Source: a virus. From it: a stretch of 64,000 nucleotides of DNA. Under the pieces are notes generated by a model. That model searched no databases and was not told the origin of the DNA. It saw only the letters and a list, made by a program, of their open reading frames with translations. The stretch lies in the IMG/VR virus record IMGVR_UViG_3300009104_000009, positions 1-64,000 of that record; one strand, 5' to 3'. The translations under genes and the position numbers were made by a program. Of this stretch, positions 21,180 through 62,052 are shown in pieces. Within the stretch, counting starts at the first letter, position 1. Each line of letters opens with the position of its first letter.

Positions 21180-22888
21180 TAACATTTAAATCCGTCCGTT
21201 ACAAAAATTTTTTAAGTAGCGGCAATGTCTTTACTCAGATAGATCTTGATAGATCTAAAACAACTCTTATCATTGGAGAAAACGGAGCGGGCAAAAGTAC
21301 TATGCTCGATGCGTTAACGTTTGGATTATTCGGGAAACCATTTCGAAGTGTTAATAAACCTCAATTAGTAAATTCAATTAATGAAAGAGAAGCGGTTGTT
21401 GAGGTTGAATTTTATGTCGGTAAAAAACATATTTTGGTCCGCAGAGGAATTAAGCCAAATATTTTCGAAATAGAAACAGATGGTTCTCAATTACAACAAA
21501 ATGCAAACGTAAGAGATTTTCAAGAATTTTTAGAAAAAAATGTTTTAAAGTTAAATTATAAATCATTTACTCAAATAGTAATTTTAGGAAACTCTTCATT
21601 TGTTCCTTTCATGCAGTTGAAAGCAGCAGACAGAAGAGATATCATAGAAGACTTGTTAGATATTCAAATATTTTCTTCTATGAATAATGTTCTTAAAACA
21701 TATGTATTAGAGAACAAAATAAAAATAGATGAAAATAAATCTTCCAGGGATTTGCTCCAAAATAAAATAGATTTAAAAGAAAATTATATTTCAAAATTAA
21801 AGCATAAAACTAAAACTCTTATAACTGGCTATGAAAAAGATATTACAAAATCTTTAGAAGAAAAAGAATCTCGTTTAACACAAATTAGTGAACTTAATAA
21901 AACAGTTGAAGATCTTTTAAATGAAGTATCTGATGCTAACGAAGTAACAGAAAAACATGATAAACTTACAGAATATCAACGTTCCATTCTCAGAAATGTT
22001 GATTCCGAACAAAAGAATATCACCTTCTTTGAGTCAAACGATGACTGTCCGACATGTAAGCAGAACATCGACCACGCCTTCAAACACAAAGAAATTATAC
22101 AAAAGCAAGAAAAGATCAAAGAATTTAAAAATGCAGTCAATAAAATTGATGGAGAACTTGAATCAACCAGAGCACGATTATCTGCTATACAATCAATTCA
22201 AGGAAACATACAAAACCATCAAACGTCCATACAAACAATCAATAATGATATAAGTGTAATTGATCAGTATGTTAAAAAACAACAAGATAATATTGAACAG
22301 TTAGAACAGGATACTGGTGACATAAAAGAAGAGAAAAAATTATTAAAAGAATACGCAGAAGAATTTAAAGAGATAGAGGCCAAAACAGAAGAATTGATTG
22401 ATGAAAAATTTATACATGAAACGGCCAGAAATATCTTGAAAGATGAAGGAATAAAGTCTAGAATAATAAAACAATATTTGCCAATCATGAATAAATTGAT
22501 TAACAAATATTTAACTCAAATGAACTTTTTCGTATCTTTCAATCTTGATGAGAATTTTAACGAAGAAATAAAATCAAGATATAGAGATGATTTTACATAT
22601 GATTCTTTTAGTGAAGGCGAAAAAATGAGAATTGATTTAGCATTATTGTTCACATGGAGAACAGTTGCGAAATTAAAAAATTCAGTTAATACTAATTTAT
22701 TAATATTAGATGAAGTATTTGATAGTTCTTTAGATGGAGAAGGCACTGATGAATTTATGAAGATAGTCAATGAACAAGGAAACAACACAAATGTTTTTGT
22801 AATTTCTCACAAAGGAGATACCTTATATGACAAATTTAGAGTACATATGAAATTTGAAAAACGAAAAAACTTTAGTGTAATATTATGA
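21176..22888 (+). CDS. gp46: Recombination endonuclease ATPase subunit (Rad50/SbcC-like)
   Basis: GENGAGKST, CPTC zinc hook, FSEGEK, LILDEVFD. Confidence 0.96.
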   Translation: MITFKSVRYKNFLSSGNVFTQIDLDRSKTTLIIGENGAGKSTMLDALTFGLFGKPFRSVNKPQLVNSINEREAVVEVEFYVGKKHILVRRGIKPNIFEIETDGSQLQQNANVRDFQEFLEKNVLKLNYKSFTQIVILGNSSFVPFMQLKAADRRDIIEDLLDIQIFSSMNNVLKTYVLENKIKIDENKSSRDLLQNKIDLKENYISKLKHKTKTLITGYEKDITKSLEEKESRLTQISELNKTVEDLLNEVSDANEVTEKHDKLTEYQRSILRNVDSEQKNITFFESNDDCPTCKQNIDHAFKHKEIIQKQEKIKEFKNAVNKIDGELESTRARLSAIQSIQGNIQNHQTSIQTINNDISVIDQYVKKQQDNIEQLEQDTGDIKEEKKLLKEYAEEFKEIEAKTEELIDEKFIHETARNILKDEGIKSRIIKQYLPIMNKLINKYLTQMNFFVSFNLDENFNEEIKSRYRDDFTYDSFSEGEKMRIDLALLFTWRTVAKLKNSVNTNLLILDEVFDSSLDGEGTDEFMKIVNEQGNNTNVFVISHKGDTLYDKFRVHMKFEKRKNFSVIL

Positions 22889-40262: not shown

Positions 40263-40622
40263 ATGATATCGTTTACAGAGAGGGCCGCCAACGTGGTACT
40301 CAAGATTATGGGCGAACAAAATGTTAGTCAAGAGACGTTTTGCAGAATAGGTGTAAAAGGTGGCGGATGTTCGGGATTTACTTATACTGTAGATTTTGAT
40401 AGTAGAAAAAGTAAATTTGATTTAGAATTTGAAAGCCACGGGCTCACTTGCGTGGTAGATAAAAAAAGTCATTTATATATAAAAGGAACAGAAATAGATT
40501 GGTCTAATGATTTAAATGATCGCGGACTAAAGTTTAATAACCCATCTGCGAAAGGCAGTTGTGGTTGTAGAACATCATTTATGCACGAGGGAATGAATGC
40601 AGGAACACCAAGTTGGATGTGA
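40263..40622 (+). CDS. iscA: A-type Fe-S carrier (IscA/HesB family) 1
   Basis: RIGVKGGGCSGF, FNNP...SCGC. Confidence 0.9.
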   Translation: MISFTERAANVVLKIMGEQNVSQETFCRIGVKGGGCSGFTYTVDFDSRKSKFDLEFESHGLTCVVDKKSHLYIKGTEIDWSNDLNDRGLKFNNPSAKGSCGCRTSFMHEGMNAGTPSWM

Positions 40623-40998
40623 ACTTAAAATAACATTAAAAGCAGCAGTTGAATTTAAACAAATGTGTATTGCTGAAGATAAGCATTGGGTGGATTCATA
40701 TTTAAGAGTAGGTGCCAAAGAAGGTGGTTGCTCAGGTTGGAAATATAGTTTAGATTACGAAGATACAGTTGACCCTACAGATGCGGTTTTTGAGCAACAC
40801 GGAGTTAAAATGGTTGTTGATAATGAGTTGCTAAATAATATAATGGGTGATGTTGAAGTAGATTATAAAATAGGAAATTTAGTTGAGCAGGGTTTTGTAT
40901 TTAATCGCCTCAAATTCGGACATCAATGTGGTTGTGGAGAAAGCTTTACACCACTTAAAGATATGAAAAACGGTAAAGAACAATTAGGCTGGCAATGA
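40597..40998 (+). CDS. A-type Fe-S carrier (IscA/HesB family) 2
   Basis: LRVGAKEGGCSGWKY, QCGCGESF. Confidence 0.88.
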   Translation: MQEHQVGCELKITLKAAVEFKQMCIAEDKHWVDSYLRVGAKEGGCSGWKYSLDYEDTVDPTDAVFEQHGVKMVVDNELLNNIMGDVEVDYKIGNLVEQGFVFNRLKFGHQCGCGESFTPLKDMKNGKEQLGWQ

Positions 40999-52287: not shown

Positions 52288-54073
52288 ACGTATTGCGTTC
52301 GTAGAACTCTCACATATTTTTACTAATCAGATTAAATTACCCTATTCTACGGGTTGTATCTGGAGTTATTGTAAAACTGATAAAGAGATTACCGATAGTT
52401 ACTCTTTTGATGTTCATGATTGGATATATGTTCTAGATGAAAATTTAGATATCAATAAAACTGCTAAACAATTATCAAAATGTGATGTTGTAGGTATTTC
52501 GTATTTTGTATGGAATACTCATGTTAGTGATAAGTTAGCTAAACAAATAAGATACATAAATCCTAAGTGTGTGATCATATATGGTGGATTAGGTATACCA
52601 AAATACGGTCGATGCGAAAAGTTTCTCAAAGACAGGCCTTATATCGACGTTATAGTACATAATGAAGGCGAGATAGTATTTAAGAATATATTGAAAGCTT
52701 TACATCGAAAAGAGGATTTAAGAAATGTTAAAGGAATCACAACACCTTTCTTTTCAACACCCTTAGAAGAAAGAGTAAAAGATATATCATCTATGCCTAG
52801 TCCATATCTTGATGGATTATTTGATGATCTCCTAGCAATTAAAAATCATTCATATGAGTGGGAGAGTTTAGTAGAATTAGAACGAGGTTGTCCTTATACA
52901 TGCACATTCTGCGAAGTTGGAGATAGGCATTGGACGAAGATATTTAAACAGGATTATAATAAGTTAGTAAGAGAAATTGATTGGGTATCAGATAAGAAGA
53001 TAGAGTATCTACATCTAATTGATAATAACTTTGGTATGTATAAAGAGCAAAAAGTTATATCCGACTTACTTATAGATAAGTATAAATTGACTGGTTATCC
53101 TAATGCTCTTAATATAACGTGGGCAAAGCATAAGAAACCATTCTTATTTGATATAGCAGAAGATTTATGGAAGGTAGGGCTCAATAAGAGTGTTACGATC
53201 GCTCTACAGTCGATGAATTCTTCTACATTAAAAGCGATCGAAAGAGCAAATGAAAATACTAATTTAAGAGAGGTATTAGCAAATTTAAAATGGAGAGGTA
53301 TGCCTGCTTATATAGAAACTATTCTCGGCCTACCAGAGGAATCATTAGATAGTTTTAAAGAAGGAATATATAGATTGATTGACGATATAAATTATCATAA
53401 TTATATCGGCATATATGTAATGGTTGCATTACCTAATACTCCATTTGGCGATCCTGAATATCTCAAAAAATATAATGTACAAATAAAGCAAACATCCCCC
53501 GCATTTTTTCATCATGAAAATCCCCCAGATCAATTATTAGAAGAAGTCAATAACGTAGTCGTTGGATCTAACAGTATGACATTTGATGATTACTTAGAAG
53601 CAACAGGGTGGAAGTGGTTTATGATATCTCTACATTTTTTAGGATGGCTTAGAATATTAGCATTAGAATTAAAAAATAATCATAACATATCAATGAGAGA
53701 GTTTTATAACGGATTATTCGAATGGTTTATTAATAATGATCAAACATTATTGTATAGAGAATATACAATTACAATGAGAATGTTAAAGAAAGTGTTTAAT
53801 AGAGAGATTCCATGGGGTCGTAAAGTATCGGATGTTTCTAATATATACTGGGAGTATGAAGAAGCCACAGCAATACACATTGCTAAAGAAAAGAATCGTT
53901 TCTATGGAGAGATAGAAGATTATTTAAAAGAAGAATATGGATTTAATTATTCTATAACAACGAATCAATATAACAAGATGAAAGACCCTTACGAAGTCTA
54001 TAACGGCGATTTAGAAAAATGGGCTCGTGAATGCATGTGGTGGGGTCGAAGAGCGGAGAGGTTTTTCGTATGA
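52277..54073 (+). CDS. Cobalamin-binding radical SAM enzyme
   Basis: B12-domain-like N-terminus (GISYFVWN, HNEGE); RGCPYTCTFC; ILGLPEES. Confidence 0.85.
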   Translation: MTSKRIAFVELSHIFTNQIKLPYSTGCIWSYCKTDKEITDSYSFDVHDWIYVLDENLDINKTAKQLSKCDVVGISYFVWNTHVSDKLAKQIRYINPKCVIIYGGLGIPKYGRCEKFLKDRPYIDVIVHNEGEIVFKNILKALHRKEDLRNVKGITTPFFSTPLEERVKDISSMPSPYLDGLFDDLLAIKNHSYEWESLVELERGCPYTCTFCEVGDRHWTKIFKQDYNKLVREIDWVSDKKIEYLHLIDNNFGMYKEQKVISDLLIDKYKLTGYPNALNITWAKHKKPFLFDIAEDLWKVGLNKSVTIALQSMNSSTLKAIERANENTNLREVLANLKWRGMPAYIETILGLPEESLDSFKEGIYRLIDDINYHNYIGIYVMVALPNTPFGDPEYLKKYNVQIKQTSPAFFHHENPPDQLLEEVNNVVVGSNSMTFDDYLEATGWKWFMISLHFLGWLRILALELKNNHNISMREFYNGLFEWFINNDQTLLYREYTITMRMLKKVFNREIPWGRKVSDVSNIYWEYEEATAIHIAKEKNRFYGEIEDYLKEEYGFNYSITTNQYNKMKDPYEVYNGDLEKWARECMWWGRRAERFFV

Positions 54074-57536: not shown

Positions 57537-58373
57537 ATGTCAGAAAATCTTCAAGAAAAACCCGCATTTTGCGATATACCTGGCGGTCCTAGGGATCCAA
57601 ATCTTAAAGCACGATGTGCAAAGCCTGATGCTCCCGCCGCGCCTAAAAAACCTGCTGACATTAGATCTAAAGCTCTAACGGACACGGAAAAGAAAAGAAA
57701 AAGAATACAGAGTTTGGGTCTTACACATGAAAGTGAAAAGAAAGAATCTTTCAAGCAATTCAAAGATAGAATTACATTGGAAGCAAATTTAAATGATTAC
57801 GTTAAAAAATATAAAATGAAAATGGGTGATAAAACTTCTACAGTAGATAAAGATAAATGGGTTGAAGGTATTGGTGGATTAACTAAGAGAGAGCAAGCAA
57901 CCCTAAAACGTGTATTACAAGGACATACCAGAGAAGGTGTAAAGGAAGACGCTGAATTTGCTGATGAGTTAGAATTAGTAGAATTAGCTCCGGTAATAGG
58001 TCTTGCAATAAGGGGTGCCGCGGCTGCTACAAAAACACCGATTAGACGAGCAATTACGAAGCATGTAGTAAAAAAAGCAGTAAACAAAGCAACCTCACCT
58101 CCTCCACCTTCAAATAATGAAGAAGTAGTAAATGAGAGTAAGGAACTTCAAGCTAAGATGGCGTTAGATGATGCAAAGATTAAGTATAAAGTAGAAGATG
58201 GTAAGATATATGTGGATAAAAAAGATCTTATGAAAGCTGAAAAGACCGTAGCAAAATCATTTAGAGTTAAGCCTAGAAACTTAGATGGGAAAAAATATCC
58301 CGCATTATATTATCACGGCGGAAGTTTAGGCATATGGAATAAGAAAAGACCTATAACAGGAATGGGTAGATGA
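57537..58373 (+). CDS. Modular putative internal head protein
   Basis: Internal ESFKQFK..ITLEA, LVE-LAPVIGLA, VNE-SK sites. Confidence 0.45.
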   Translation: MSENLQEKPAFCDIPGGPRDPNLKARCAKPDAPAAPKKPADIRSKALTDTEKKRKRIQSLGLTHESEKKESFKQFKDRITLEANLNDYVKKYKMKMGDKTSTVDKDKWVEGIGGLTKREQATLKRVLQGHTREGVKEDAEFADELELVELAPVIGLAIRGAAAATKTPIRRAITKHVVKKAVNKATSPPPPSNNEEVVNESKELQAKMALDDAKIKYKVEDGKIYVDKKDLMKAEKTVAKSFRVKPRNLDGKKYPALYYHGGSLGIWNKKRPITGMGR

Positions 58374-58867
58374 GAACGTTTATAGAACATGTAATAATTG
58401 AACAAGAATTACGTATGGATAGAGAATTGCAAAATATTCTTATGATTCATGCTAAAGATTATAAATTATTCAGAGAAGGTAAACAGGAACTATCAGAGTT
58501 ACCTCATTTGTATAATGATTTAGTAAAACATTGGCAGACAGATATGCCGTACGGAGTAACAAAAGCCCGTGAGGGTGACCCCTATGAATGGATTGCGAAC
58601 AAATTGAATAGTATTGAAGAACACGGTGAGCCAATGCCAAAGTCATTAGTTCACAATTGAGCTACACACGTTAAACATCCAAGTTTGGGTGATGAAGAAT
58701 TAGAAGTAATAAGTCACAGTTTAGATGAAGATGGTAGAATAGAACAATACAGAGTTAAACCGCCACGCAATGCTCAAATTGGTTCAACAGTAGTTCTGCA
58801 AGCAGAAGAAGTTACTGTAACTAGAGAGCACAGTCACAAACACAAGGTAAAACCCAAAATTAAATAA
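58370..58867 (+). CDS. Putative selenoprotein (165 aa, Sec97), His-rich C-terminal domain, capsid-targeting-like leader
   Basis: Track ORFs 58370-58660 and 58685-58867 are one frame split only by TGA 58658-58660 (HN-U-ATHVKHP); SECIS-like hairpin at 58676-58691. Confidence 0.7.
58676..58691 (+). promoter_or_regulatory. Putative bacterial SECIS element
   Basis: CAUCCA-AGUU-UGGGUG, starting 15 nt after UGA. Confidence 0.6.
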
Positions 58868-58871
58868 TGAA

Positions 58872-59042
58872 ATGAAGACTTTTAAAGAATTTGGAGCATT
58901 CTTCGATGCAACTTTGTCGCAAGATGAAAAAGAGGACATTCCCGTTTTTTCAGATGAGAAGCTTTCAGACACTTCTTACGCAGCCAAAGTTCGACCAGCT
59001 TATAAAGACAAGCAAAAGAAGAAGCAAGTCGATAAATCTTAA
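58872..59042 (+). CDS. Small putative internal protein (56 aa, not in ORF track)
   Basis: Starts MKTFKEF, like T4 internal protein leaders. Confidence 0.55.
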   Translation: MKTFKEFGAFFDATLSQDEKEDIPVFSDEKLSDTSYAAKVRPAYKDKQKKKQVDKS

Positions 59043-59061
59043 TATATATCATAAATTTTGA

Positions 59062-59601
59062 ATGGATTTATTAAAACATACATACAGCAATCTATCCCCT
59101 TATAAAAATCACGAGCAAAAATTATATAAGAAGGGCGACAACTGGTATAAAGAAGTCCGTGAAGGATATTTCGATGATTTTGATATTGAAGCCTTACGTA
59201 CATATATCGAAGTATATGATTTTATAGACCCTCCAATAACATTGGAATTGGAAGACGGTGTTTTTAAATATGAATGTAGAGACTTATCTAAGACACATAA
59301 ACAACTCATAGATATCCCATATAATCGTCAAATCAAAATTCTCGGTAAATTGTTATCAGAGGTAATGCATTCTTTTTTAGAGTTCTCTGAAGCAAGAGGG
59401 AAAGTAGATATTCCAACGCCCAGTAATCCAACAGGAAAAAAAATTTTTTGTCACAGAGACTTAGCTTTTCATAATATCTATGTCGCTGGTGATGATATTA
59501 AACTAATAGATATTGATTCGTTTATGTGGACTAACAGAGGCGATTTCAAATCCTACTATCAATATACTCTTTTAAGATTGGCACAGCATTTTGATCACTA
59601 A
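59062..59601 (+). CDS. Protein kinase/APH-like phosphotransferase
   Basis: CHRDLAFHNI...IKLIDID. Confidence 0.7.
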   Translation: MDLLKHTYSNLSPYKNHEQKLYKKGDNWYKEVREGYFDDFDIEALRTYIEVYDFIDPPITLELEDGVFKYECRDLSKTHKQLIDIPYNRQIKILGKLLSEVMHSFLEFSEARGKVDIPTPSNPTGKKIFCHRDLAFHNIYVAGDDIKLIDIDSFMWTNRGDFKSYYQYTLLRLAQHFDH

Positions 59602-60721
59602 ACCTTGCCTAGCACCTTTTAACTCAATTTTTCATAATTATGATGGTGCTACTTCTGTATGCTGTCACAGACCTGTTGAGATCACAGGTAAGACCCTACA
59701 CGAGAGCATGCACGATGAGAAACTACAAGCAATAAGAAGAAGTTTCGCTAAAGGAGAGACACCTCCAGAGTGTCGGTTATGTCCTAAGCAGATGAGAGAG
59801 TATCATACTGAGAATATCTCTAAGAATATTAAAAGTATTTCATTAGAAAATAAGTTCACTCCAGTAGCTGTAGATTTCTTCTGGTCTAATAAGTGTAATT
59901 TCGCATGCTTAGGGTGTGATAGTTATAAGAGCTCAACAATTGATAAGAATTTTAGAGAGATATATGAGATAATAGATCATCAGAGGCCTGTTCCTAATAT
60001 AGGATATGATAAGCAAGAGAGATTTGATTATATACTAGAAAATTCCGACAGTATTAGAATAATGCATTTATCGAGTTCCGGAGAACCATGGATTGAAGAT
60101 AATATCTATGAGTTATTAGAGCTCTTAGTAGAGCATAAGTTATTTAACATTGAAATAGCGACCCATACTAATGGAAGTATATTGAATTATAAGAATAAGA
60201 GTATGATTGATATATTAGATAATTGGAATGGTAACGCAACTGTTATAATGAGTAATGACGGTACAGGAAAAAGAGGAGAGTATGTCAGATATGGTTATAA
60301 AGATAAAATGTGGTTAAGGACGTATAATAAACTAAAAGAATCTAGCATTAACGTATATGTTCACTACTGTATGAACTTATTCAATATAATGTATCTCAGA
60401 GAAGATGCAGAATGGTTTAAAGAGAATTGTGATGATACTGATATACTCTTAAGATATTGGGAATGGCCTTCTTTATTAACGTCTAAGTTTTTAAAATATT
60501 GGGGTGATTTGTATGACGAATCAATTGATTCATTCAATAGCGCGAAATCCTATTATAAGGATTCGGAGTATGCTGAAGATTACCTAAATACTATAGGGAG
60601 AGGAAATAATTTTAAAGATGATGTTTCGCGATTTAGTTCATTTATACAGAAGATAGATGAAAAAAGAAATACTGATTTTGTAAAAACTTTTCCAAAGTTG
60701 AATGAGATTGTTTTATGGTAG
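59591..60721 (+). CDS. Twitch/SPASM-domain radical SAM protein
   Basis: CLAPF...VCC...ECRLC; NKCNFACLGC; GEP; TNGS. Confidence 0.82.
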   Translation: MITKPCLAPFNSIFHNYDGATSVCCHRPVEITGKTLHESMHDEKLQAIRRSFAKGETPPECRLCPKQMREYHTENISKNIKSISLENKFTPVAVDFFWSNKCNFACLGCDSYKSSTIDKNFREIYEIIDHQRPVPNIGYDKQERFDYILENSDSIRIMHLSSSGEPWIEDNIYELLELLVEHKLFNIEIATHTNGSILNYKNKSMIDILDNWNGNATVIMSNDGTGKRGEYVRYGYKDKMWLRTYNKLKESSINVYVHYCMNLFNIMYLREDAEWFKENCDDTDILLRYWEWPSLLTSKFLKYWGDLYDESIDSFNSAKSYYKDSEYAEDYLNTIGRGNNFKDDVSRFSSFIQKIDEKRNTDFVKTFPKLNEIVLW

Positions 60722-61395
60722 ATAATTTAAAAGAGATTATTCACAAATCTCAAATATGTCAAAGAAATTGGGATTTGAGTGAAGAGATCCCTCAAGAGCA
60801 TGTTGATTTAATTGTAGAAGCAGTTACACAAAGCCCCACCCGTCAAAATATCCCGTTCTATAATGTAGATGTTGTTACAGACAGATCTTTAATCAACAGT
60901 ATCCATAATAATTCTGCTTTTTTTAAAATTAAACCAGGTATGGAGTTATCAGAATATTCTCACGCTGTCGTTAGGGGTTCAGATGTAGAGAAGGATGAAG
61001 ATGGTGTTATCACAAAAACTAATCCTCAAGTGCTAGCTCCCTTATTACTTGTTTTTAGTGCTAATGAAGAGACTTATTACGATAATCAGTTACGACATGG
61101 TAAAGACTCTGCGGAACGTGTTAAGTGGGAAAAAGACGTAAGCCTTTCTATAGGCGTAGCATCTGGATTTGCAAAACTAATATCTACACAATTAGGATAT
61201 GTAAGTGGTTTTTGCGCTTGTTATGGTGAAGAAATAGATAAACTAATAGGATCTTCGGTACGGTTATTTCTTGGGATAGGAAAGCCTGATAAAAACAAGA
61301 AATATACAGAGAGTCATATTGAGGAATTTGAATATCCCAGCTTTAAAGATGTAAAGAGATTAAAACCTGTAAAAGTAGAGTGGCATAATGGCTAA
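60715..61395 (+). CDS. Nitroreductase-family protein
   Basis: CQRNWD, QSPTRQN, PQVLAPLLLVF, LGYVSGFCAC, LGIG. Confidence 0.75.
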   Translation: MVDNLKEIIHKSQICQRNWDLSEEIPQEHVDLIVEAVTQSPTRQNIPFYNVDVVTDRSLINSIHNNSAFFKIKPGMELSEYSHAVVRGSDVEKDEDGVITKTNPQVLAPLLLVFSANEETYYDNQLRHGKDSAERVKWEKDVSLSIGVASGFAKLISTQLGYVSGFCACYGEEIDKLIGSSVRLFLGIGKPDKNKKYTESHIEEFEYPSFKDVKRLKPVKVEWHNG

Positions 61396-61621
61396 ATGGA
61401 AAATCAGATATTGTAGTTCTTGAAACTACAAACCGAACGCAGAAAGTCTTTCTGCTGAAATGAAAAAATTAGGTTATGACGTTGAAATTGAACAAGGAGA
61501 TACTGGACAATTTGAGCTATTTAAATGGTCCACCACATTGTGGATGTCATTTATGAAAGGTGGACATGGAAAGTTCTTTGGAATACAGGAAGTGACGGAG
61601 GCATTAACTAATACGGAGTAA
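61388..61621 (+). CDS. Rdx/SelW-family selenoprotein (77 aa, CxxU; not in ORF track)
   Basis: MAKWKIRYCSS-U(TGA 61421-61423)-NYKPNAESLSAEMKKLGYDVEIEQGDTGQFELF; fills the gap exactly. Confidence 0.88.
61439..61455 (+). promoter_or_regulatory. Putative bacterial SECIS element
   Basis: GCAGAA-AGUCU-UUCUGC, starting 15 nt after UGA. Confidence 0.75.
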
Positions 61622-61623
61622 AT

Positions 61624-62052
61624 ATGGTTTTTGGACTTGGAGATCAAGAAGAACAGAGAACTAAAGAATTATTTGTAAGTAAGAATTTTAAATCACATTC
61701 AGGATTAGACTTAACATGGAAAATAGAGATGGACGCGTTAATGGATTCCGAATGGTTTACGATCAAGAAAATGATCATGGAGATAACACCTCCTTTTAGA
61801 GAAGCAGTCGGTATTCCACGTGGTGGAGTTAAGCTCGGCAATCTTCTCAACGAACACGCAACAGGGAAAAAAGAAGATCCTATTTGTATAGTAGATGATG
61901 TATTAACTACAGGTGAGTCAATGGAAGAATTTTTAACACAATATCAACGTAATCGCGAACCATTTACAGCGATCGGTTGGGTAGTATTTGCGAGAACACA
62001 ATGTCCGTCATGGGTAAACGCGGTATTTCAAATGCCATATTTAGCTGTATAG
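61624..62052 (+). CDS. pyrE: Phosphoribosyltransferase (orotate PRTase-like)
   Basis: FKSHSG, GIPRGG, IVDDVLTTGES. Confidence 0.75.
   Translation: MVFGLGDQEEQRTKELFVSKNFKSHSGLDLTWKIEMDALMDSEWFTIKKMIMEITPPFREAVGIPRGGVKLGNLLNEHATGKKEDPICIVDDVLTTGESMEEFLTQYQRNREPFTAIGWVVFARTQCPSWVNAVFQMPYLAV

Follow-up and report, generated by a model that had tools for sequence, protein, structure and literature searches.

Two probable selenoprotein genes with in-frame UGA codons and bacterial-type SECIS-like hairpins in an uncultured marine T4-like phage

The viral DNA analyzed here (the window) is a stretch of 64,000 nucleotides, positions 1 to 64,000 of the IMG/VR record IMGVR_UViG_3300009104_000009, and carries two small, unrelated genes that are each interrupted by an in-frame TGA (Table 1). 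The start codon of gene 1 overlaps the TGA stop of the preceding gene (ATGA, 58370), and gene 2 fills the gap between an upstream gene (60715–61395) and a PRTase-like gene (61624–62052). An earlier note, made from the sequence alone, had described both TGAs as lying within continuous reading frames, each followed after 15 nt by a 6-bp stem with the loop AGUU or AGUCU, with AAGT at positions +21 to +24 and the loop G at +23; re-examination of the coordinates bore this out in full. An assembly error is excluded, as contigs from four runs and four studies show no listed difference at either TGA. The expectation that standard gene callers would mishandle both genes also proved correct: they are split, or TGA is read as Trp (genetic code table 4), and the annotated products are N-terminal pieces of 96 aa and C-terminal fragments whose first residue is M25 or that begin with the TTG of the hairpin.

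Table 1. Positions of the two genes, their in-frame TGA codons and the adjoining hairpins in the window.
Feature	Position	Strand	Description
Gene 1	58370..58867	+	165 aa with TGA read through, no other stop (translation)
Gene 1 in-frame TGA	58658..58660	+	Proposed Sec codon, residue 97
Gene 1 SECIS-like hairpin	58676..58691	+	CAUCCA-AGUU-UGGGUG, coded by H-P-S-L-G; spacer 58661-58675 (15 nt), CATCCA 58676-58681, AGTT 58682-58685, TGGGTG 58686-58691
Gene 2	61388..61621	+	77 aa with TGA read through, no other stop; motif Y-C-S-S-U
Gene 2 in-frame TGA	61421..61423	+	Proposed Sec codon, residue 12, second position of CxxU
Gene 2 SECIS-like hairpin	61439..61455	+	GCAGAA-AGUCU-UUCUGC; spacer 61424-61438 (15 nt), GCAGAA 61439-61444, AGTCT 61445-61449, TTCTGC 61450-61455

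Gene 1 is laid out as an N-terminal module (MPYG..KARxGDPYEW) followed by a C-terminal H-x-U-A-T-H beta-barrel domain. This domain has a conserved motif rich in His (H-x-U-A-T-H ... H ... H-x-H), probably a metal or redox site. Homologues span the TGA position and the protein is conserved on both flanks; the short relatives have only ~23 residues before the UGA, with the invariant His of the domain upstream of it. The N-termini (MRTFIEHVIIE in the window, MKT[FY]xEF in 18 relatives) show no more than a resemblance to the leader of the T4 internal proteins IPI-III, which is cleaved by the prohead protease. A capsid targeting sequence (CTS) exists in the T4 internal proteins (PMC3012670).

A profile search with the Sec forms returned 47 relatives of gene 1 and recovered Cys-type members with E-values between about 1e-7 and a little less than 1e-3. 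Among the relatives that keep H-x-[C/W]-A, the distant ones show Cys at the UGA column, and P0001 matches phrog_22379 across the UGA (E = 5e-4). Cys-aligned homologues, which the earlier note had proposed to look for, are numerous for this gene and include proteins of cultured cyanophages, in which the codon is TGT (phage P-HM2) and the hairpin is missing. The set used for comparison consists of the Cys-type H-x-C-A-T-H proteins of T4-like cyanophages (PHROG 22379 / 11470, function unknown; P-HM2 PHM2_164, S-ShM2 SShM2_183). The C-terminal domain of gene 1 can be aligned with them over its whole length, and both have the invariant His, Gly and Tyr, the terminal H-x-H and the Lys-rich tail, so that gene 1 meets the test for this phage domain (H-x-C ... 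H ... G ... Y ... H-x-H) with U for C. The differences are a TGA in place of TGY, S-L after H-P in the Sec forms (coding for the loop and 3' stem) versus E-[FWY] in the Cys-type proteins, and size, as the cyanophage forms are often long and multi-domain whereas most Sec forms are small (about 88 aa) and consist of one domain only. Judged by these alignments, the gene 1 domain appears to be a Sec variant of a phage domain whose cyanophage members carry Cys; the Cys/Sec evidence for this family, which is comparative, is new in this analysis.

The gene 2 protein matches the Pfam family PF10262 (Rdx) at 31 bits (cut-off 22.6), and so do 14/14 phage relatives. It falls below the cut-offs of the narrower NCBIfam models (24.4 versus 34.2 for TIGR02174, 40.1 versus 88 for NF041051) and is related to, not a member of, these SelT/SelW/SelH models. 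The predicted structure (pLDDT 87; E3-9, H15-27, E31-37, E43-48, E51-57, H66-75; C9, U12) would place CxxU between beta1 and alpha1 of a thioredoxin-like beta-alpha-beta-beta-beta-alpha fold, in line with the test set for this family, and its top Foldseek matches are the bacterial SelW-related structures 2oka, 3dex, 2fa8 and 2p0g (probability 1.00, TM 0.65–0.75). Bacterial SelW-like selenoproteins (PF10262; TIGR02174 / NF041051) have in common with gene 2 the fold, CxxU after beta1, a size of ~77 aa and a hairpin within the coding region with a G-U loop 21 nt from the UGA; gene 2 differs in being divergent and encoded by a virus of bacteria. The UGA aligns with the second Cys of CxxC in solved Rdx proteins, and it is only at this level of the Rdx family that a Cys counterpart is found, since no Cys form of the close phage SelW-like family occurs among the 120 closest database proteins. 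Among 185,579 species genomes a single near relative was detected; the 2.2-kb contig that carries it is phage-like and had been binned into an archaeal MAG.

The hairpins were compared with a bacterial SECIS (bSECIS) consensus that asks for a loop of 3–9 nt whose first or second nucleotide is a G with G or U next to it, an upper stem of 4–16 bp, 16–37 nt from UGA to apical loop and a minimum free energy no higher than -7.5 kcal/mol (PMC13188914). Both meet the loop and stem requirements, with loops of 4–5 nt starting A-G-U and 6-bp stems (the gene 2 hairpin can alternatively be read as a 7-bp stem with the loop GUC); two relatives (L016, L018) have the loop AGGCU, in which A-G-G is an allowed alternative. 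At both sites, as in all relatives, 21 nt separate the UGA from the loop, which lies within the consensus range. In the window, folding energies of -7.3 kcal/mol (z = -2.2) at gene 2 and of -6.9 to -7.2 kcal/mol at gene 1 fall just short of the criterion. When 45 nt are folded at gene 1, the structure of lowest energy is not this hairpin but another (-6.9 kcal/mol, z = -0.6). Relatives reach -8.3 (L011) and -10.3 kcal/mol (L105), and the value varies with the stretch folded. Folding energy alone is weak evidence, and the case rests on conservation, not on thermodynamics.

The TGA, 15-nt spacer and hairpin of gene 1 are present in 24/24 loci (the window and 23 further), and the TGA and hairpin of gene 2 in all 20 DNA loci examined (the window, 17 IMG/VR loci, L100 and L108). 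Synonymous sites are frozen in the hairpins only: in 19 distinct gene 1 sequences the hairpin codons CCA, AGT and TTG are each fixed (19/19), whereas four codons occur for a nearby Ala and five for the Leu in HSL, and in gene 2 AGT (12/12), CTT (13/14) and TCT (12/13) are held while the spacer codons and the TGQFELF motif vary freely. Gene 2 stem positions are paired in 96% of cells versus 24–68% for slid partners, and L011 retains a hairpin although the residues differ. Covariation is limited, the stems being nearly invariant; one gene 2 pair appears as A-U, G.U and G-C across relatives, and the gene 1 stem varies from U.G to C-G. A scan of the whole record for an in-frame TGA with a hairpin and a G[G/U] loop, similar to one suggested in the earlier note, passed five sites. 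Only the two reported here combine a 15-nt spacer with a position inside a credible coding frame; the others are on the minus strand or out of gene.

Both UGAs fit the standard comparative criteria for Sec codons (invariant UGA, consensus hairpin, frozen synonymous sites), and we consider it highly probable that the two are selenoprotein genes of an uncultured marine T4-like myophage, with UGA read as Sec by means of a bacterial-type hairpin. The ribosome of a Sec-competent bacterial host would read both internal UGAs as selenocysteine, the hairpin 15 nt downstream acting as a bacterial-type SECIS that recruits host SelB with Sec-tRNA(Sec). Gene 1 would then yield a small protein with Sec in the His-rich motif of its C-terminal beta-barrel domain, and gene 2 a SelW-like redox protein of thioredoxin fold, with CxxU as its active site. 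Sec insertion, the use of host SelA/B/C/D, any need for selenium in completing the proteins and the biochemical roles of the products are all inferred, in the absence of proteomics and 75Se labelling.

The alternative that survives best, though we regard it as unlikely, is programmed UGA read-through without selenium, in which a near-cognate Trp or Cys tRNA, stimulated by the hairpin, would give short and long products as in the A1 protein of Q-beta. Read-through signals, too, are built as a hairpin just behind a leaky UGA, and the likeness to the Q-beta type extends to a short form of gene 1, which in phages L021-L023 lacks the extension, indicating that the N-terminal module can stand alone; a relative (G002) has a tRNA-Cys(GCA) gene. 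In gene 2, however, where the UGA is codon 12 in CxxU, a short product of 11 residues would make no sense and Trp would destroy the motif. In gene 1 the stop would fall inside the domain, because the invariant His is upstream of the UGA in the short relatives, and the Cys seen at this column in distant relatives points to Sec, not Trp. The G-U/G-G loops and the spacing moreover fit the SelB-type consensus. Unlike the Q-beta case, the UGA lies here within a catalytic motif or domain and is aligned with Cys, so it matters which residue is inserted, a hallmark of Sec and not of read-through.

We give still less weight to true termination at both TGAs, with the downstream frames separate (begun at weak codons, TTG 58685 and ATG 61460) or untranslated and the hairpins serving as regulatory or stabilising RNA. 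Such split products are precisely what gene callers annotate, and gene 2 of the window has an in-frame ATG 13 codons past the TGA; many relatives, however, have no start codon after the TGA. The W-x-I-K-Y-C-x-S stretch before the gene 2 TGA is kept in all relatives, ten of which lack a Met after it, the Rdx match and the predicted beta1 strand begin before this TGA, and neither the profile of the gene 1 domain nor the Cys-type proteins show a break at the column.

TGA is otherwise an ordinary stop in this phage. The ATGA overlaps cited earlier (16053, 19799, 21176) are present, with further ones at 22885, 47251, 50244, 58370, 62417 and 63857 (nine in all), TGA ends 29 of the 79 long ORFs of the 83.9-kb record, and a second, genuine TGA terminates most short gene 1 relatives and several gene 2 relatives; global recoding, which the earlier note had ruled out, is indeed excluded. 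Reassignment of UGA (code 4 or 25) or its decoding by a suppressor tRNA, with the hairpin irrelevant, is close to refuted by these stops, by the overrun of the table 4 product P0014 past the true stop into unconserved sequence and by the lack of a tRNA with anticodon UCA in the record or the complete relative, even though database gene calls give Trp at these TGAs and stop-codon recoding through suppressor tRNAs is known in other phages.

If UGA is read as Sec, the machinery has to come from elsewhere. Five phage records, among them that of a complete 134.5-kb relative, yielded no tRNA-Sec, suppressor tRNA, SelB wing domain, selA or selD, and it is therefore inferred that the host, itself unknown, must supply the machinery on which the phage depends. 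Judged by the portal protein, the closest phage in culture is one that infects Pelagibacter, and a preprint reporting that 135 Pelagibacter genomes lack selC counts against the Sec reading. As to the term selenoproteome, used in the earlier note, the genes number two in this phage and one in a complete relative; a second phage contig (L100) also has both. A broader proposal, tentative and without virion data, is that an uncultured marine T4-like phage clade has its own small selenoproteome, in which gene 1 would represent a new selenoprotein family, a His-rich H-x-U beta-barrel protein with an internal-protein-like leader that is taken into the capsid and from there passed into the cell, and that the Sec or Cys form may track the Sec capacity of the host, making UGA plus SECIS a host-range marker.

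Recoding of UGA as selenocysteine is well documented in cellular organisms. The viral selenoproteins named in a review of recoding are the glutathione peroxidases of two poxviruses, molluscum contagiosum virus and fowlpox virus (PMC8310308). As in this phage, a viral selenoprotein gene leans there on host Sec machinery, but those are host-captured genes of eukaryotic viruses with a eukaryotic SECIS, whereas the phage signal is a SelB-type hairpin beside the UGA and the phage proteins belong to other families, one of them without a cellular counterpart found. No published selenoprotein from a virus of bacteria was found in the literature searched, and phages are not mentioned in a 2026 review of prokaryotic selenoproteomes (PMC13188914). 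Both UGAs are very probably read as Sec, in which case gene 1 founds a selenoprotein family with Cys in its cyanophage relatives.

If real, these genes would show that a phage may need, for some of its genes, both a specialised translation pathway of the host and a supply of selenium. Such dependence would constrain host range and help to predict the hosts of uncultured marine phages. SelW-like proteins are the most abundant selenoprotein family reported in ocean metagenomes (PMC9402790), and part of this signal may be viral. Standard annotation would systematically split such genes or mistranslate their UGA as Trp (table 4). For gene 1, an invariant Cys worth replacing by Sec would likely be catalytic or redox-active, a strong functional hint for a phage domain of unknown function.

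The window belongs to an 83.9-kb IMG/VR virus record (35% G+C; completeness estimated at 46%) whose long ORFs all lie on the + strand according to an ORF scan. The phage is a T4-like myophage by its predicted genes for terminase, tail sheath, portal, scaffold and helicase. Its portal protein shares only 52–55% identity with the portals of Pelagibacter phage Mosig and cyanomyophages, and a near-identity search among cultured phages gave no match to the window; thus none of the cultured phages is a close relative.

Two genes of this phage continue through an in-frame TGA, here taken as a proposed selenocysteine (Sec, U) codon, into a downstream stem-loop. The positions, spacers and stem-loop sequences described in the earlier note proved exact for both genes and are listed in the table together with the other features discussed.

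Positions of the two recoded genes, neighboring features and assembly evidence (window coordinates)
Feature	Position	Source	Remark
Gene 1 (+)	58370-58867	window	165 residues, translated through TGA
Gene 1 TGA	58658-58660	window	15-nt spacer follows
Gene 1 hairpin	58676-58691	window	CATCCA-AGTT-TGGGTG
Gene 2 (+)	61388-61621	window	77 residues, translated through TGA
Gene 2 TGA	61421-61423	window	15-nt spacer follows
Gene 2 hairpin	61439-61455	window	GCAGAA-AGTCT-TTCTGC
Small leader-bearing genes flanking gene 1	57537-58373, 58872-59042	window	conserved
Twitch-domain radical SAM protein gene	59591-60721	window	between genes 1 and 2
Overlapping tandem genes, small proteins	40263-40998	window	GGGCSGF/GGCSGW and C-terminal CGC motifs
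Blocks at which assemblies break	58652-58692, 61408-61475	several studies	TGA and hairpin
Contigs over the TGA sites		runs X3, X4	2,838 nt and 2,828 nt (X3), 5,067 nt (X4)
115-nt unitigs	58579-58693	runs X2 and X4	no differing letter

A general reassignment of TGA can be dismissed, as the earlier note had argued: the codon ends 29 of the 79 long ORFs of the record (TAA 46, TAG 4) and overlaps the next start codon as ATGA at nine junctions, among them the start of gene 1 itself. The tRNA genes detected in the 83.9-kb record are those for Asn, Tyr, Gly, and Asp; neither a tRNA with anticodon UCA nor a tRNA-Sec above the Rfam cut-off was found in it. A record-wide scan for in-frame TGA followed by a hairpin with a G[G/U] loop retrieved, within credible genes, only the two sites already reported. 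The TGA codons at 54028 and 40260 were considered as further Sec sites and rejected, both being ordinary gene junctions. The tandem genes near the latter position are known from ORF translations only, and their products look like A-type (IscA/HesB-like) iron-sulfur carriers.

Assembly error, named beforehand as a possible refutation, is ruled out by contigs from four runs of four studies, which cover both TGA codons with the same letters and no listed difference at either, with the caveat that rare variants can stay hidden in a comparison of contigs. In several studies the metagenome assemblies are interrupted precisely at the TGA-hairpin blocks. Co-sampled phage variants are identical over these segments (about 40 nt) and differ in the flanks, and the loose ends enter other versions of the gene; the breaks arise from this exact sharing.

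The consensus for the bacterial SECIS (bSECIS, the RNA hairpin 3′ of the UGA that is bound by SelB) comprises a loop of 3–9 nt, a stem of 4–16 bp, a G among the two leading loop nucleotides (in most cases as N1-G-[G|U]-N-N2, where N1 can pair with N2), a UGA-to-loop distance of 16–37 nt and a folding energy of -7.5 kcal/mol or lower (PMC13188914). The loop, stem and spacing criteria are met at both sites. In gene 2, AGUCU matches N1-G-U-N-N2 exactly and the sole loop variant among relatives, AGGCU, is the permitted alternative; the folding energy of the gene 2 hairpin is modest (-7.3 kcal/mol, z = -2.2). In the window both sites fall just short of the energy criterion, which relatives satisfy, though the value shifts with the segment chosen for folding. 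The two encoded proteins, one SelW-like and the other carrying an H-x-U domain, are indeed unrelated, as had been claimed, and the equal 15-nt spacer and A-G-U loop start in both genes would be needed if a single SelB served the two sites. An Rfam search of the hairpins gave no match to a SECIS family at E up to 10, an expected outcome since bacterial SECIS elements are poorly represented in that database.

Against Pfam Rdx (PF10262) the 77-residue product of gene 2 scores higher than the curated threshold, and its UGA occupies the second position of a C-x-x-U motif. Relatives at the DNA level comprise 17 IMG/VR loci, a metagenome contig (L100) and a contig from a MAG (L108); every one has TGA at the U column, in a conserved context (upstream W-x-I-K-Y-C-x-S, downstream N-Y-[KR]-P-Q-A-E-S-L-S-A), and all 14 distinct relatives match Rdx. 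Ten relatives have no Met after the TGA, which leaves read-through as the only way to produce the conserved domain; several end at a second TGA, which is a true stop. The AlphaFold model (pLDDT 87; beta-alpha-beta-beta-beta-alpha order) finds its best Foldseek matches in the bacterial SelW-related structures 2oka, 3dex, 2fa8, and 2p0g (TM 0.65–0.75). Scores below the NCBIfam SelT/W/H cut-offs place the protein in a divergent branch.

The check for Cys-aligned homologs proposed in the earlier note was positive for gene 2 only at the level of the Rdx family. A profile of the relatives aligns U with the second CxxC Cys of the solved Rdx proteins MIEN1 (2ljk) and Vibrio SelW-related protein (2p0g). 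The same profile found 533 clusters in a collection of 5.8 billion proteins and none of the best 120 has Cys at this column (W 114, R 3, S 2, Q 1). The W stems from short contigs whose genes were called under table 4. Six proteins have R, S, or Q (P0117, P0133, P0137, P0134, P0169, and P0143), residues that TGA could yield by one base change (R and S) or by two (Q); errors, gene decay and genuine variation are all possible explanations. Among species-genome contigs the single match to gene 2 was L108 (JAKUSK010000076.1, 2,240 nt), binned into a Nitrososphaerales MAG. It was rejected as a clue to the host; this 2.2-kb contig, on which an AdoMet-decarboxylase-like protein is encoded as well, is probably phage DNA placed in the wrong bin.

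Comparison of the relatives indicates that the gene 2 hairpin is under selection at the RNA level. Its stem is paired in 96% of cells compared with 24–68% for slid partners, the third pair varies between A-U, G.U, and G-C, and one relative (L011) has altered encoded residues (E to T) and retains a bulged hairpin with the loop AGUU. Synonymous sites in the hairpin are frozen even where six-fold degenerate (Ser AGT 12/12, Leu CTT 13/14, Ser TCT 12/13), in a gene whose spacer uses four Pro codons and evenly split Tyr and Gln codons and whose invariant T-G-Q-F-E-L-F motif draws on three to five codons each for Thr, Gly, and Leu. Shuffle-based covariation was not significant because the stem hardly varies; the RNA-level argument rests on the slid-partner control and the synonymous-site freezing.

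The 165-residue product of gene 1 has no Pfam match. The module at its N-terminus (MPYG..KARxGDPYEW) recurs commonly in long phage proteins built of several modules, and some close relatives (L021-L023) stop shortly after it. Long proteins with the GDPYEW module (L028, L033, L055, L065, L092, L094, L098) often add a module C-N-x-[ST]-x-x-G-x-x-C-P-x-H-G-x-x-E-C, which probably binds metal and has no relation to the H-x-C domain. From about residue 85 gene 1 encodes a separate domain, carried by 23 further loci that all present TGA, the 15-nt spacer and CAYCCA-AGTT-TGGG[TA]G. Most are genes of about 88 residues with only about 23 residues before the UGA; in these a run of Lys leads up to another TGA, the genuine stop.

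A search of 1.84 billion representatives with a Sec-form profile gave 47 proteins (two low-scoring ones, P0017 and P0023, are apparently spurious). The close ones have “W” at the U column, which stands for TGA, since one of them (P0014) also has W for the TGA that truly ends locus L114, continuing into unconserved sequence; the IMG/VR loci carrying TGA support the same reading. Most of the distant matches have Cys, in H-[DNSM]-C-A-[TSK]-H-V-x-H followed by the shared invariant H, G, Y, and H-x-H. These Cys forms fall in PHROG 22379 and 11470, both of unknown function, and occur in cultured Prochlorococcus and Synechococcus myophages; phage P-HM2 (PHM2_164, locus L133) has TGT at the column and a sequence 15 nt downstream that is not self-complementary. 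Marine picocyanobacteria are not known to be Sec users, which would fit the Cys forms in cyanophages. The GenBank name “possible cytitidyltransferase” on the cyanophage H-x-C-A-T-[HK] proteins (PHM2_164 and relatives) has no Pfam support in related proteins.

After H-[PEA], Cys forms have E-[FWY] and Sec forms always S-L (AGT TTG), the codons that build the hairpin loop and 3′ stem. Hairpin codons are invariant (CCA, AGT, and TTG, each 19/19); outside them, the Ala two codons past the UGA uses four codons and the Leu of H-S-L five, a pattern indicating that synonymous freezing is local to the hairpin. Judged from these alignments, gene 1 encodes the Sec counterpart of a domain found with Cys in other phages. 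AlphaFold models the domain (pLDDT 79) as a small beta-barrel of five strands, U lying on strand 1. Fold searches returned only generic KOW/SH3/Tudor-like small beta-barrels (Z < 5, Foldseek E > 0.1), so no function can be deduced from it; the invariant His around the Cys/Sec suggest, by inference, a metal or redox site.

Many small window genes (58370, 58872, 39888, 38689) and nearly all short H-x-U genes (L105, L113-L129) share the N-terminus MK[TS][FY]xE[FM], which we take to resemble the T4 internal-protein capsid targeting leader. Conserved small genes with such a leader flank gene 1 in L020-L023 and L100-L104. Packaging of the gene 1 product in the capsid is no more than an idea, its sole basis being this resemblance. 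The radical SAM gene between the two genes was recognized by NCBIfam NF033640 (190 bits, cut-off 170).

Both genes occur in the window and in contig L100, and in L100 they lie only about 0.7 kb apart; a complete 134.5-kb relative has the SelW-like gene only. No tRNA-Sec above the cut-off, SelB wing domain, selD or selA was found in five phage records, including this CheckV-complete relative, the tRNA-like matches being ordinary Tyr, Arg, Val, Cys, and His tRNAs. One record (G002, that of locus L020), a T4-like phage fragment despite its IMG/VR label “provirus”, carries tRNA-Tyr, tRNA-Val, and tRNA-Cys(GCA) genes at 75900-78000. As the phage records hold no Sec machinery, the system must be supplied by the host, an inference about a host that remains unknown. 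According to a preprint, 135 complete Pelagibacter genomes lack selC and all Actinomarina genomes have the machinery; the host of the nearest cultured phage is therefore a poor model for that of the window phage. No experiment shows selenium in either protein, and their function is likewise inferred.

Bacterial SelW-like selenoproteins and the SelB/SECIS mechanism have long been known. SelW-like proteins are the most abundant selenoprotein family in ocean metagenomes, and a 2021 marine survey reported selenoprotein families with few or no viral sequences (PMC9402790). As viral selenoproteins a recoding review names the glutathione peroxidases of two poxviruses, which have eukaryotic signals (PMC8310308); phages and viruses go unmentioned in a 2026 review of prokaryotic selenoproteomes (PMC13188914), and within the literature collection searched nothing relevant to phage selenoproteins was found. 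With selenium incorporation inferred, the two genes would represent a known Sec mechanism in a new carrier, a phage, with one new selenoprotein family.
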